Below, in pieces: positions 4,251 to 62,548 of a stretch of DNA of 64,000 bases. How positions within the stretch are numbered: position 1 is the first letter of the stretch; the number at the start of each line of letters is the position of its first letter. Under the pieces are notes generated by a model. The model worked only from the letters and a program-made list of their open reading frames with translations, was not told the DNA's origin and made no database searches. A program made the translations under genes and the position numbers. Where the stretch lies: assembly GCA_027623195.1 (NCBI GenBank), contig JAQBUT010000004.1, forward strand, positions 81,609-145,608, written 5' to 3'. Origin of the DNA: Chloroflexota bacterium. Lineage in GTDB: Bacteria; Chloroflexota; Dehalococcoidia; Lucifugimonadales; JADFKI01.

Positions 4251-5708
4251 TTATCTAGGTTTGCCCAGCACGAGGACTTCAGTTCGATGATATGCCTTGT
4301 GCAATTTGTAAAGCATTAACTCTTTTTGTTCCCATATGCTTACGGGTGGAATCAACCTGGCGGCGAGCAAATAGAACAGCACTGCGCCCCCAATTACTCC
4401 GAGCACGATCAATACATCCGGGACACCGGGCATATTAGCCGCGGGTATCGAATCAAAAGGTATCTCGTGCTTGTCCACCCTGTAATCACCAACGCCCGGG
4501 TAAGACCAGGCCGCCACGTATAGACGAAGCCTGTCGAAGAAGGTCCCGGCGAGAACGGCGACCGACATAATAGTAGGACCCCAGAAGCTCTTTCGAACGC
4601 GGTTCCACATCATCACCAGAAGCGGTGTCACAAAGCTTAGTATGAAACCCGCCATGAACGCAGGCTGATAAGACCCAACCATGAGATATTTAAGAACGGC
4701 CTGCTCACTAGGCTTCTTTCCGTACCAGAAGACATTAAAGCTAGAGAACCAGAACCAGAACCACAACAAGGACAAAGCAAAGAGCAGCTTGCTCATCGCC
4801 CAGAACTGGTCCAATGTAAAGTAGTCCTCGTACCCTCCGAATTTTCGAAGGAAGAACATGGTCAAAATTACAGTTGCGACGCCTGCCTGCAATGAGTTAG
4901 CAGCGTGAGTCAGCGGATAAAGCGAGTCTATCCAGCCTGGCACCAGCGTCATCAGAAAGTCCGTGCTCACCAAGTAGTGCACAAACACCAGCATCATGAA
5001 ATATAACGCGCCAACAATGCCCATGCGATGGTGAAGCATATTCCATTGTTCCGTGGTCCCAATCCATCGTCCGGAAAGACGAGCGGACCATTTCTGCTTC
5101 CACCCGGTACTATGCTCACGCATCAGGGCAAGATCCGGCATTGCTGATAGCCAAAGCAGCATAATGCCAAGCGCTGCTAACGACAGTAGAGCTGCCGTAG
5201 TCCATATATGCGGGGAATACACCGGCACCTTGCTAAAGAACGGGTCGTCGGAGTTATAAAACCAAAGGCTACGGCGTCCGTCGGTTAGCGGCGGCAATAT
5301 CCACAGCATGGGAATAAACAGCAAAAGACTGAAAATACCAGCAGCCGACCAGAGTTCAGCTACACGGGAGACTGGCCTACGCCAATGTGCGTTTGCCAAC
5401 CTGGGCGCAATCGCGACCATCGGCGCGGCTGACGCGGTTGTGAGAATGAAGCTAAACATCATGGCGTAGTAGGCCCACACCATCCTGTCACTCACGCCGT
5501 CATTTACCCTCATCACAAAGCCGATGACGCCAAGCACTAGCAGAAACCCAGCAGCAGCTACACCGCTCAACCACTTGTCGCTGATCTTGTCATGTTTGGT
5601 TACGAGGTCGTTCACCACCTCCCTTTGGGAAGTGAACGGCACATACATACCTTCTGCATGATGCTCTTCGTTATGACCGCTGGCGTTGTGACTAGCCATG
5701 AACCTCAT
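4251..5708 (-). CDS. second, more divergent NrfD-family membrane subunit (ActF-like)
   Basis: A 485-aa multi-TM protein that retains the HWRRPVSRVAE segment homologous to the neighbouring NrfD-like gene. It overlaps the upstream Fe-S gene by 17 nt. Confidence 0.65.
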   Translation of the reverse strand: MRFMASHNASGHNEEHHAEGMYVPFTSQREVVNDLVTKHDKISDKWLSGVAAAGFLLVLGVIGFVMRVNDGVSDRMVWAYYAMMFSFILTTASAAPMVAIAPRLANAHWRRPVSRVAELWSAAGIFSLLLFIPMLWILPPLTDGRRSLWFYNSDDPFFSKVPVYSPHIWTTAALLSLAALGIMLLWLSAMPDLALMREHSTGWKQKWSARLSGRWIGTTEQWNMLHHRMGIVGALYFMMLVFVHYLVSTDFLMTLVPGWIDSLYPLTHAANSLQAGVATVILTMFFLRKFGGYEDYFTLDQFWAMSKLLFALSLLWFWFWFSSFNVFWYGKKPSEQAVLKYLMVGSYQPAFMAGFILSFVTPLLVMMWNRVRKSFWGPTIMSVAVLAGTFFDRLRLYVAAWSYPGVGDYRVDKHEIPFDSIPAANMPGVPDVLIVLGVIGGAVLFYLLAARLIPPVSIWEQKELMLYKLHKAYHRTEVLVLGKPR

Positions 5709-6450
5709 GTTCCTCGGCCGTCTTGTCGACCTTCTTTAGGTATACAACATTAGGATGTGTGCCCAAATGCTCAAGCATATGGTAGCCTCTGCCGCCAGGA
5801 CGCGATCCGGCAGGCTGCTTGAGCTCCTCTTTGGACTGTTTTGAAATCGCGCTATCTGAGTCATCAAGGTTACCGAACGTTAGCGCATGGGTCGGGCAAG
5901 CGTTCACGCAAGCCGGACTCATACCCCTATCGCCGTCTTCGACCTCTTGGCCATCCTTGGCGGCCTCTCGAGTCGAGCGACGAATTCGCTGAATACAGAA
6001 GGTGCACTTTTCCATGATGCCCCTGCTTCGCACGGTGACATCCGGGTTTAGCTGATTTTTAAGGCTCTCAGGCCACTCAGGCTCCCAGAAATTGAAGAAC
6101 CTTGCCTGATATGGGCAGTTGTTGGCGCAGAACCTGGTGCCAATGCAGCGGTTGTAGACCTGAACATTCAGGCCTTCGCTGTTGTGATACGTCGCGTATA
6201 CAGGGCATACGGGCTCACATGGAGCGTCATCGCACTGTTGACAGAACACAGGAACAAAGCGAGCCCTAACATTGGGGAACTCCCCTTCCCAGTAGCGTTC
6301 TATTCGAATCCATTCGATAGCACGTCGCTGGTTGAAGTGGCCTTCCTCGTTAATGGGGATATTGTTTTCGGACTGGCATGCAACAACGCACGCCTGACAG
6401 CCGATACACTTGTCGATATCGACGATCATTCCCCATTTATTCTCTGCCAT
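5692..6450 (-). CDS. 4Fe-4S ferredoxin-type iron-sulfur subunit (ActB2-like, separate polypeptide)
   Basis: Several Cys clusters are present: CIGCQACVVAC, CQQCDDAPCEPVCP, CIGTRFCANNCP and CTFC. Confidence 0.8.
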   Translation of the reverse strand: MAENKWGMIVDIDKCIGCQACVVACQSENNIPINEEGHFNQRRAIEWIRIERYWEGEFPNVRARFVPVFCQQCDDAPCEPVCPVYATYHNSEGLNVQVYNRCIGTRFCANNCPYQARFFNFWEPEWPESLKNQLNPDVTVRSRGIMEKCTFCIQRIRRSTREAAKDGQEVEDGDRGMSPACVNACPTHALTFGNLDDSDSAISKQSKEELKQPAGSRPGGRGYHMLEHLGTHPNVVYLKKVDKTAEEHEVHG

Positions 6451-45795: not shown

Positions 45796-45891
45796 TGTGG
45801 CCACACACCTCAGAACCTTCTGACAAACGGCGCATCTAATTGGCGCCGGTCCCTAACGGGGAAGACCCAAAAATGCGGAGAGGACGAGAAT

Positions 45892-46443
45892 ATGCCGTGG
45901 ATTGACCAGGACGAAAGCCTTAACGTTGGGAACGTAATCAAGATAATGTCCCTGAGGCCCAAAGCCATGCAGGCCGTAATGGATGTAAATCAGGCCGTCA
46001 CATTCGGAGGGTCGGCGCTAACGCGAGTCCAGGAGGAGGCGATTGCCACCACTGTGGGCGTCGTCAACAAGTGCCGCTACTGAACGATGTCCCACGGGGC
46101 GTTGCTCCGTCAGATGTCCGATGACCCCGAGATGGCCAGCATGGTGATGTATGACTACACCAAGGCCAACATCGATCCCCAGTTGAAGGGAATCCTGGAT
46201 TTCGCCACCAAGCTAACCCTCAAGCCAGGCGAAATGGAGGAGACCGACATTCAGACCTTGCGCGTTTCCGGCCTGAGCGACGAGGAGATTCTCAGCGTTG
46301 TCATGGTGACTTGTAACTTCAACTTCATGACGCGGCTTGCAGACGCCCTGGGTGTGGTCTTCGAAGACTCACGTCAACAACAGATGGAGCGATGGCTGAC
46401 TGGTCCCGTTAAAGACCAGGAATGGCTCATGAAGCAGAAGTAA
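45892..46443 (+). CDS. AhpD/carboxymuconolactone-decarboxylase-family peroxidase-related protein, probable selenoprotein (UGA at 46081-46083 read as Sec)
   Basis: Two same-frame ORFs are separated only by TGA-ACG. Read-through gives VNKCRY-U-TMSHGALL, which matches the family's CxxC...H redox motif. The combined length is 183 aa. Confidence 0.7.
46086..46118 (+). promoter_or_regulatory. SECIS-like hairpin downstream of the in-frame UGA
   Basis: A 6-bp lower stem, a 2x2 internal loop, a 6-bp upper stem and a CGUUG pentaloop. The loop GUU lies 21-23 nt from the U of UGA. Confidence 0.5.
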
Positions 46444-46522: not shown

Positions 46523-47902
46523 TCAGTCGGCCCCGCTGCCGGTAGGCGCTGGCTCTGGGTTGGACACTCCATGCCCCTCGGTCCCGAAGACCTGCTCCAC
46601 TTCCCAGTCTGGTATCAGTATTTTGTGCGTAGGCTCAAGCACCACGATGCTGACCATGCCCGCAAGGCTCGCCACTATGGCTATCATCAGGGCCAAGTCA
46701 TAGCTGCCAGTCATATCGTAAATTGGCCCGCCGACCCATCCACCCAGCGCCATGCCGAGGCCTGCTCCAAGCATCTGAATGCCATAGGGCGAGCCCGTAG
46801 GCGCGTGGCCGTAGTATTTTCGATTCAGTATTGGGAAGCCGCCGGTCTCGCCTCCGTAGCCTATCCCGAACAGCACTGCGAATAGGTAGAACATCCACGG
46901 GTCATGCGTCCAGAATAGCGACACCACGGTGATGCCCTGCAGAAAGTAGAAAATGGCCATGACGGTCCGGGTGCCCATGTGCTCGCAAAGTATAGGCACG
47001 GCGATTCGAGATATTATGCTCACGGCTGACATGACCGTTAATAGTGCCGCCGCCGTCACCAGGGACAGCCCTTCGCTGACAGCCAACGGTATGATGTATA
47101 TCAGTATCACAGCGTGGCCAACGCATCCCAGGAAGTGTATGGAGCTCAGGTTCCAGTATGCTGCCGTCCGGCGCATGTGGCCGTTGAACATCTTGATCCG
47201 CTGCGGGTCGACGACCTTTTCTTCCGGAGATGGGTCGCCAGGCCTATGCCCGTAAGGCAAGATGCCCCGGTCCGACGGCTTGTTGCGAAACACCACGATA
47301 AGCCCCGCCATAATCAATGCGGAACCAACGCCCAGCGCCAGGAAGGCCTGCTGCCATTCCATGTACTGAATCATGGCGCCAATGGCAGGGGCAGCCAATG
47401 CTGGCCCCAACCCCCACGCCGCCATTATCAGGCCCATGCCAACGCCCAAGTGACGCCTGAACCAGAGCATTGCGGCAGGAATTAGAGGCACGAGGAACAT
47501 GGCCTGAGCCACTCCCAGAAGGACGCCGAAGTAAAGATAGAGGTGCCAAGGTTGCGATATGTAACCTGTGAGGATCATGCCCACAAGGAAGAGCGCCGTC
47601 CCGACCGCCATGGCCTTGCGCGCTCCAAAGCGGTCGCCGAACCAGCCAGCGAATGGCGATGACAGAGCGGTTACTAAGCTGGTAATGGCGTAGGCTAAGG
47701 TGATGGTGCCCTGGCTCCAGCCGAAACTCACTTCTAGGGGTTCGATGAATACGCCGAACGCCATGCGAACCGATGTCCCGACCATTTGCATGACTGCGAT
47801 AACCGTTACGATTACCCAGGCGTAATGAGGGTAGAAGACCCGGCCATTTCCGCCATCTTCACCTTTACCTGGGTCCCTACCCAGATTGACACCGAGTGCC
47901 AT
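46523..47902 (-). CDS. MFS transporter
   Basis: The 459-aa product has about 12 TM segments and a GWFGDRFGARK-type loop motif. Confidence 0.8.
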   Translation of the reverse strand: MALGVNLGRDPGKGEDGGNGRVFYPHYAWVIVTVIAVMQMVGTSVRMAFGVFIEPLEVSFGWSQGTITLAYAITSLVTALSSPFAGWFGDRFGARKAMAVGTALFLVGMILTGYISQPWHLYLYFGVLLGVAQAMFLVPLIPAAMLWFRRHLGVGMGLIMAAWGLGPALAAPAIGAMIQYMEWQQAFLALGVGSALIMAGLIVVFRNKPSDRGILPYGHRPGDPSPEEKVVDPQRIKMFNGHMRRTAAYWNLSSIHFLGCVGHAVILIYIIPLAVSEGLSLVTAAALLTVMSAVSIISRIAVPILCEHMGTRTVMAIFYFLQGITVVSLFWTHDPWMFYLFAVLFGIGYGGETGGFPILNRKYYGHAPTGSPYGIQMLGAGLGMALGGWVGGPIYDMTGSYDLALMIAIVASLAGMVSIVVLEPTHKILIPDWEVEQVFGTEGHGVSNPEPAPTGSGAD

Positions 47903-62184: not shown

Positions 62185-62548
62185 GGGGACGCGTGGTTTC
62201 GACAGGGGATTAACTTCGAAGGATTGCAGGTCGAGGCGCCATCATCACCTCGTAAAAAGGTGGCAAAAAAATTAATTGGCAACTCACAAGAGTACGCCCT
62301 AGCCGCCTAATTTAGGTGACTACATCCATGGTTTCTTCTCCTCGAGGGAGGCTAATGGGTGATATAACATCGAGGTGCTGCCCGATTTACGCCGATATTG
62401 AGGGCCTAAGACTTATCGGCTGTGGGTTTGCAGTCGCTCCCCGCTGGAAGGTGCTGCCGACTCAAGATTAAAAATTCCGGCTAAGCCTGTAGTATATCCT
62501 CGTAGTCGTTTTCTGGACGGGGAGTTCGACCCTCCCCCGTCTCCACCA
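62185..62548 (+). ncRNA. ssrA: transfer-messenger RNA (tmRNA), tag reading frame GNSQEYALAA
   Basis: The 5' end is GGGGACGCGTGGTTTCGACAGGGG. The tag ORF is GGC AAC TCA CAA GAG TAC GCC CTA GCC GCC TAA. The 3' end has a T-arm (GGGGAGTTCGACCCTCCCC) and acceptor (CGTCTCCACCA) with the G-U pair at acceptor position 3. Confidence 0.92.

Follow-up and report, generated by a model that had tools for sequence, protein, structure and literature searches.

Two reading frames joined across a UGA

The window analysed here is a 64,000-nucleotide stretch of contig JAQBUT010000004.1 from a bacterium of the Dehalococcoidia (Chloroflexota). Within it lie two open reading frames (ORFs), 45892-46083 and 46087-46443, which share a common frame and have only TGA (46081-46083) and one further codon, ACG (46084-46086), between them. 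An initial annotation, made from the letters of the stretch alone, had proposed that the UGA is recoded as selenocysteine (Sec) in a protein of the AhpD/carboxymuconolactone decarboxylase (CMD) family, and that a hairpin resembling a selenocysteine insertion sequence (SECIS) follows it. The analysis reported here leads us to the same reading with high confidence: the UGA is very probably recoded as Sec within a single gene. The comparative evidence summarised below would be hard to explain otherwise.

The arrangement of the two frames and the length of the fused product were as the initial annotation had described them. Read-through of the UGA yields 183 residues (...VGVVNKCRY-[UGA]-TMSHGALLRQ...), and the N-terminus, MPWI..., agrees with the MSWI or MPWI of homologs. 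For profile searches, the U of the read-through product was replaced by C. The product scored 126.4 bits against the NCBIfam model TIGR01926 'peroxidase-related enzyme' (cutoff 81.8), with residues 8-158 aligned to positions 24-176 of the 178 in the model, so the match spans the stop. The cutoffs of Pfam CMD PF02627 (41.1 bits against 23, E = 1.8e-10) and of TIGR00778 ahpD_dom (29.9 bits against 27.8) were also exceeded, which bears out the proposed family. Both halves are homologous to one domain. We conclude that 45892-46443 is a single gene, with a predicted product that is a 183-residue AhpD-like thiol/selenol oxidoreductase of the TIGR01926 family. The features of the locus are collected in Table 1.

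Table 1. Features of the predicted selenoprotein gene and of the downstream hairpin, in window coordinates
Feature	Position	Strand	Remarks
Complete predicted selenoprotein coding sequence (CDS)	45892-46443	+	183 residues including Sec64; stop TAA 46441-46443; TIGR01926 AhpD-like peroxidase-related enzyme
Shine-Dalgarno-like GGAGAGGA	45877-45884	+	7 nt 5' of ATG 45892; read from the sequence
Glu49 codon GAG	46036-46038	+	Proton-relay Glu, 12 residues before the first Cys; codon -15; invariant in 65/65 TGA forms
Cys61-Arg62-Tyr63 (TGC CGC TAC)	46072-46080	+	First Cys of C-x-x-U and relay Tyr; Cys invariant in 65/65; aligns with C-x-Y-C of PDB homologs
In-frame UGA, predicted Sec64	46081-46083	+	Second-Cys position of CxxC; TGA in 70/80 related loci and 6 independent assemblies
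His68 codon CAC	46093-46095	+	Relay His, four residues after Sec; overlaps the 5' arm of the stem; invariant in 65/65
Conserved core of the predicted bacterial SECIS (bSECIS)	46094-46110	+	7-bp upper stem 46094-46100/46104-46110; GUU apical loop 46101-46103; 17 nt from the UGA
Whole hairpin	46086-46118	+	Upper stem plus lower stem 46086-46091/46113-46118 across a 2x2 internal loop; minimum free energy (MFE) -16 kcal/mol; lower stem lineage-specific

The UGA lies at the second cysteine of the CxxC centre

The proton relay of AhpD proteins consists of Glu36/Cys48/Tyr50/Cys51/His55 in PA0269 and of Glu118/Cys130/His132/Cys133/His137 in Mycobacterium tuberculosis AhpD (PMC3141380). The window protein reads Glu49-x11-Cys61-Arg-Tyr63-Sec64-x3-His68, which fits the AhpD pattern Glu-x11-Cys-x-[His/Tyr]-Cys-x3-His apart from Sec at the second Cys position. 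The spacing of the relay is identical to that of both characterized proteins, and the motif C-x-Y-[C/U] is shared with PA0269.

The crystal structures 2pfx, 3c1l (Mlr4105), 6k40, 2prr and 2oyo aligned over about 145 residues (E = 3e-26 to 4e-21), with N-x-C-x-Y-C-x-x-x-H-G-A opposite N-K-C-R-Y-U-T-M-S-H-G-A. In contrast to the window protein, all five are Cys forms, and they are uncharacterized peroxidase-related or AhpD proteins. Three of them, 2pfx, 3c1l and 6k40, align across the UGA (E = 3e-26 to 1e-23) and place the motifs NKCFYCLVAHGA, NHCYYCLTAHGA and NRCVYCAVSHGA opposite NKCRY-U-TMSHGA. Since C-x-Y-C stands opposite CRY-U in all three alignments, the UGA falls on the second Cys of the CxxC motif. 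Five orthologs from the genome scan described below (L064, L068, L069, L073 and L082) encode Cys at the UGA codon, by TGC or TGT. The position claimed for the UGA in the initial annotation is thus upheld by three structures and five genomic orthologs; it is not upheld by the closest full-length homologs, which have Arg, Trp or Gly there.

The TGA is genuine and is conserved across phyla

The sequence TGA-ACG-ATG was recovered in six independent assemblies, one from ENA and five Logan assemblies of separate sequencing runs. Three of the six carry two substitutions relative to the window, and these leave the protein unchanged. The TGA is not an assembly error, and its reading as TGA, not TGC or TGT, on which the initial annotation depended, is the same in all six. 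TGA also terminates ordinary genes of the window. It is the stop of 10 of 62 ORFs and of 5 of the 41 long ones, among them the gene of a major facilitator superfamily (MFS) transporter at 46523-47902, which Pfam confirms. The organism therefore uses the standard code, and the UGA at 46081-46083 is a local exception.

A scan of genomes, with one genome per species, yielded 80 related loci. The codon at the Sec column was TGA in 70 of these, TGC or TGT in five and GGA in one, while the remaining four were N-terminally truncated; TAA or TAG was found at this column in none of the 80. The TGA forms represent at least six phyla. They occur in Dehalococcoidia (including closed chromosomes such as OY762409.1 and OZ242283.1), Anaerolineae, Chloroflexia and Gemmatimonadota, the last including Longimicrobiales, and further in Calditrichia, Cytophagia, Acidobacteria (Pyrinomonadaceae) and two cultured Bacillus isolates. 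Glu49, Cys61 and His68 were invariant in all 65 TGA forms compared. This distribution of TGA and Cys, together with the invariant flanking residues, is the classical signature of a Sec/Cys pair.

A nonsense mutation, or a sequencing or assembly error, in an ordinary CxxC AhpD-like gene would give no full-length protein and would also produce a gene called as two ORFs, of which GenBank annotates the 118-aa piece only. Degraded relatives do exist: L056, L058, L060 and L061 are without the N-terminal half, and His68 is replaced by Leu in L049. Such decay is at odds with a TGA that recurs in six independent assemblies and in 70 of the 80 related loci across phyla and is never TAA or TAG, with catalytic residues that are invariant on both sides of the stop, and with two between-strain single-nucleotide polymorphisms that leave the protein unchanged. 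We regard a pseudogene or an error as effectively refuted by the conservation across phyla and assemblies, and its probability as negligible.

A conserved stem-loop follows the UGA

The stretch 46086-46118, directly downstream of the UGA, has as its MFE fold a hairpin with the base pairs that the initial annotation had listed, and one extra C-G pair closes the GUU loop. Counted from the U of the UGA, the loop G is at a distance of 21 nt and the loop U at 22 nt, in keeping with the distance of about 21-23 nt that had been given for the loop GU. For comparison among relatives, we used 64 distinct 45-nt stretches starting at the UGA, in which columns 14-20 pair with columns 24-30 to form the upper stem. 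The region is gap-free and aligned codon for codon, so the 64 stretches are directly comparable.

RNAalifold independently predicted the upper stem. Of the cells in this stem 94.6% were paired; column shuffles gave 88.5 ± 0.6, and sliding the partner by 1-3 nt gave 43-58%. Compensatory cells numbered 27, whereas 6.9 ± 2.2 were expected from the shuffles, and none of the 500 shuffles reached the observed number. At pair 15-29, 58 sequences have C-G and five have U-A; at pair 20-24, 30 have G-C, 14 have A-U and seven have C-G. The compensating bases include the non-synonymous second position of codon +6 (Ala, Glu or Gly), which is matched by the wobble base of the next codon.

Constraint on synonymous sites coincides exactly with the stem. 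Leu+8 is encoded by CTC in 62 of 65 and Arg+9 by CGT in 53 of 59 sequences, whereas the other Leu and Arg codons of the same genes favour CTG and CGC, and codon +6 ends in G practically without exception. The loop G (column 21) is conserved in at least 90% of the sequences, and the loop reads GUU in 45, GGG in 11 and GGC in four of the 65 TGA forms.

In the published bSECIS model, the upper stem has 4-16 bp, the loop has 3-9 nt with a G among its first two positions, the spacing is 16-37 nt and the MFE is at most -7.5 kcal/mol (PMC13188914). The window element agrees with it on all four counts (GUU loop, 7 bp, 17 nt and -16 kcal/mol), and so do 64 of the 65 TGA forms. Of the 65 TGA forms, 63 retain all five pairs of the stem core, compared with only one of the seven Cys or Gly forms. 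The SECIS-like nature proposed for the hairpin is accordingly borne out by the model, by the compensatory changes and by the synonymous-site constraint. This holds for the upper stem. The pairs of the lower stem, 46086-46091/46113-46118, form in about 12-60% of relatives, many of which fold some lower stem in a different register, and we therefore rejected the lower stem of the initial annotation as part of the conserved element.

A hairpin at this place could also serve translational coupling. Translation would then stop at the UGA and restart at the ATG three nucleotides later, and the resulting subunits of 63 and 118 aa would assemble. ATG 46087 does follow directly on UGA-ACG, and members of the closest clade often have Thr-Met at +1 and +2; Met stands at +2 in 29 of 65 TGA forms. 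However, more than half of the TGA forms have neither this Met nor another in-frame start nearby, as seen in UGA-GCC-GUC-GCC-CAC (L037-L050) and UGA-AUC-AAC-CAC (L063 and L072), so reinitiation fits one clade only. Upstream of ATG 46087, inspection of the sequence revealed no Shine-Dalgarno or other ribosome-binding site, and no purine run comparable to GGAGAGGA. The split would moreover cut through the C-x-x-[C]-x3-H centre and delete a key residue, and it would leave the restriction to TGA unexplained. We consider termination and reinitiation very improbable.

Evidence weighing against Sec and alternative decoding of the UGA

Several observations weigh against the recoding of the UGA as Sec or temper the evidence for it. 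The hairpin by itself is not unusual (z = -1.31, with 20 of 200 shuffles folding as well), nor is it in 100 nt of context (z = +0.54); the significance of the predicted element comes only from the comparison with relatives. Within that comparison, the shuffle statistics are inflated because the sequences are related to one another. Both the slid-register control and the spread across phyla speak against relatedness as the whole explanation of the stem signal. The control for absence of the hairpin comprises seven Cys or Gly forms only, five of them Cys. No Rfam family matched the hairpin, either in a search of the whole window at gathering thresholds or in a search of 45980-46220 at E <= 10, which gave only chance matches far below the cutoffs. 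Furthermore, the closest full-length homologs (four matches) have Arg, Trp or Gly and not Cys at the Sec column, and Cys occurs there only in more distant orthologs.

The genes for Sec decoding form the last of these points. selA, selB, selD and tRNA-Sec were not found in the 64-kb window or in the approximately 1.3 Mb of sequence flanking the related loci: at 1e-5, neither the window nor L001-L083 contained a tblastn match to Escherichia coli SelA, SelB or SelD, and ARAGORN detected no tRNA-Sec in the window (transfer-messenger RNA, tmRNA, only) or in 60 related loci. That this organism is able to decode Sec is something that we infer. According to BSepDB, the ten bacterial genomes with the largest selenoproteomes include two of Dehalococcoidia, with 46 and 49 selenoprotein genes, from species with the Sec pathway (PMC13326102), and Chloroflexi are described as having a tRNA-Sec of the 8/4 type (PMC5389517). 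A search of the literature on SAR202 and selenocysteine returned nothing relevant; PMC5424206 deals with a subject other than UGA decoding.

DNA was fetched for three of the non-Cys homologs, and their codons are CGA, TGG and GGA, each one substitution away from TGA. We had considered that Trp or Gly in full-length homologs could be an artefact of gene calling under code 4 or 25. This was rejected because the DNA truly reads TGG, CGA and GGA.

The UGA might instead be decoded as an amino acid other than Sec. It could be read as Cys, by a tRNA-Sec-like tRNA or through thiophosphate-derived Cys-tRNA(Sec), or as Trp or Gly, by hairpin-stimulated near-cognate read-through or in an alternative code. 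Sec-like tRNAs carrying other amino acids exist. Such decoding would be in line with Sec machinery not being seen in the window or in the flanks of related loci, with the relatives that have TGG, CGA or GGA at the site, and with TGA being the rarest stop of the window (10 of 62 ORFs). However, TGA terminates ordinary window genes, so neither code 4 nor code 25 is in use, and none of Trp, Gly and Arg can stand in for the redox-active residue of a CxxC centre that is invariant in the wider family (PMC3141380). The element also fits the SelB-type bSECIS in its spacing and its loop G[U/G], and the family is catalogued as a selenoprotein family (PMC13188914). On balance, decoding as a residue other than Sec is improbable.

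Proposed mechanism

In the mechanism that we propose for Sec insertion, the mRNA stem-loop just after the UGA, with its 7-bp upper stem and GUU loop, would recruit SelB-GTP-Sec-tRNA(Sec) to the ribosome, which would then insert Sec at the UGA instead of terminating. Sec64 would substitute for the second Cys of the C-x-x-C centre, within a relay of Glu49, Cys61, Tyr63, Sec64 and His68. The enzyme probably cycles between the selenol/thiol and a Cys61-Sec64 selenenylsulfide, and its substrate would be a peroxide or a peroxiredoxin-type partner, which it would reduce.

Two variants of this mechanism may be envisaged, and we see little prospect of either. SelB-like, SECIS-dependent insertion could deliver another residue, for example Cys on a tRNA-Sec-like tRNA, or, in a milder version, the SAR202-type clade could be obligately Sec-dependent. 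Among more than 55 close relatives no Cys ortholog was seen, and the non-UGA forms there have only Gly, Arg or Trp. If the clade were obligately Sec-dependent, Cys could not substitute for Sec in this enzyme.

Relation to known selenoproteins and their relatives

AhpD-like proteins with a CxxU motif are a known class of selenoproteins, as the initial annotation had stated. The 'AhpD-like protein' (CXXU motif, COG2128) was reported by Zhang, Fomenko and Gladyshev in 2005 as a new selenoprotein family of the Sargasso Sea, with 27 sequences and predicted SECIS elements (PMC1088965). Among the prokaryotic selenoprotein families of the Global Ocean Sampling (GOS) data, 'AhpD-like 1' ranked fourth in abundance; 299 Sec forms and 902 Cys homologs were counted (PMC2398784). 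'AhpD-like protein, TIGR01926, CxxU' is also listed in a 2026 review (PMC13188914). The window gene resembles this family in exceeding the TIGR01926 cutoff, in the predicted Sec at the second Cys, in a SECIS immediately after the UGA whose small apical loop contains a G, in its occurrence in marine or aquatic uncultured bacteria and in the existence of Cys homologs. We found no substantive difference; the present case comes from a metagenome-assembled genome of the SAR202-type Dehalococcoidia from a Caspian Sea sample, its product is truncated to a hypothetical protein in GenBank, and no Cys ortholog was seen among the closest relatives in its clade. By every sequence-level test of membership the gene is one of this known family, and its predicted anatomy shows no departure from it.

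Two other assignments were rejected. NF041238 AhpD_rel_CFYUT (Sargasso Sea 'hypothetical protein 1') has a related CMD/AhpD-type CxxU domain, but the window protein scored 69.9 bits against a cutoff of 175, and the model has 357 positions compared with its 183 residues. A gamma-carboxymuconolactone decarboxylase was dismissed since the window protein has the C-x-x-[C/U]...H relay, which is absent from gamma-CMD enzymes (PMC3141380); only the generic Pfam CMD domain is shared.

Compared with M. tuberculosis AhpD and PA0269, which use Cys, the window protein would use Sec, and its activity is predicted. Among the neighbour genes examined, no ahpC or peroxiredoxin partner adjoins the window gene; a partner may be encoded elsewhere in the genome. 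Like the SECIS of E. coli fdhF, the window element lies inside the coding sequence directly after the UGA and has a small apical loop that starts with G and then U. It differs from the fdhF element in the position of these bases (+21/+22 rather than +23/+24), in showing no evident bulged U and in having no sequence similarity to it; binding of SelB is predicted.

Annotation of the gene and significance

The initial annotation had expected that automated annotation would split or truncate the gene, and this is what the databases contain. An exact match of 118 aa in a database of 5.8 billion proteins is the GenBank entry 'hypothetical protein BZY79_01145 [SAR202 cluster bacterium Casp-Chloro-G4]'. 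More than 100 clusters at 90% identity (matches P0005-P0120) are fragments of 118-119 aa whose first residue is the Met encoded two codons past the UGA. Many of them derive from large contigs, up to 4.2 Mb in length, and their records list no Pfam domain. As all of these clusters begin just after the stop, the same split has been called repeatedly: gene callers truncate TIGR01926 CxxU genes systematically. Because of this truncation, the redox repertoire of SAR202 and other Dehalococcoidia, which are abundant in the dark ocean and in deep lakes, is under-reported.

Descriptions of the family, including its CxxU motif, its SECIS and how abundant it is in marine metagenomes, go back to 2005, and the locus raises no new biological question. 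Its practical value is a correction of annotation in a lineage whose richness in selenoproteins had already been reported, and for which Sec recoding would imply a selenium requirement. The cultured Bacillus isolates with TGA forms (L076 and L079) would be convenient hosts and offer a tractable route to the physiological substrate of TIGR01926 proteins.

Variant relatives and neighbouring genes

In these two isolates, Bacillus sp. SCS-153A (L076, NZ_CP143546.1) and Bacillus sp. Marseille-Q3570 (L079), the motif reads NECFY-U-MEHHG, with the TGA at about 10157. The stem, AUGGGGC-GGC-GCUCCAU, differs from the SAR202 stem by a compensatory change from C-G to U-A.

A sense codon occupies the Sec column in two homologs with 60-62% identity to the window protein: TGG at 767-769 in L001 and CGA at 359-361 in L002, each represented by one contig of about 1 kb. 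All seven stem pairs are intact in both. A sense codon combined with a perfect stem would fit a Sec codon that was lost very recently, or else an error of sequencing. In a subclade of about 40-43% identity, GGA (Gly) stands in place of the UGA within CRYGALTHG (L003, codon 6196-6198; L055, codon 6222-6224; also P0074 and P0099), and the downstream stem has decayed to five of seven pairs. Here Sec appears to have been replaced by Gly and not by Cys, which would remove the second redox residue. L003 has, in addition, a separate gene for a 101-aa CMD-domain protein directly upstream (5618-5923).

Four dehalococcoidial loci (L056, L058, L060 and L061) retain only the C-terminal two-thirds of the protein; their match begins at about residue 68-71, and the sequence upstream is unrelated and rich in stops. 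They may be remnants of a decay or rearrangement that removed the Sec-containing N-terminal part. L049, a TGA form with Leu (CTC) for His68 (TMSLGG), may be an inactivated copy or an assembly error.

The window gene is flanked upstream by a short-chain dehydrogenase/reductase (SDR) gene and downstream by the convergent MFS transporter gene, and an NHL-repeat protein and a glyoxalase-fold protein are encoded nearby. The synteny with SDR and MFS genes is common to the closest relatives only and therefore gives no functional lead. In six related loci from Dehalococcoidia and Chloroflexota (L006, L034, L038, L041, L054 and L059), a tRNA-Gly(CCC) gene lies 0.3-4 kb downstream, a synteny that the window locus does not share.

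When the window was searched for ORFs split by a TGA into two parts of 45 aa or more each, no other credible selenoprotein gene emerged. A second scan, which combined a TGA, a neighbouring redox motif and a SECIS-like hairpin, had the present site as its top match and nothing else credible. Among the 62 window ORFs of at least 90 aa, TAA is the stop codon of 31, TAG of 21 and TGA, the rarest, of 10, and TGA ends five of the 41 ORFs of at least 200 aa. The window has 55.6% G+C, at which TGA stops would be expected to be common. The sole structured RNA gene detected in the window is a tmRNA gene at 62185-62548 on the + strand, which encodes the tag GNSQEYALAA and was found by both ARAGORN and Rfam (150.8 bits).

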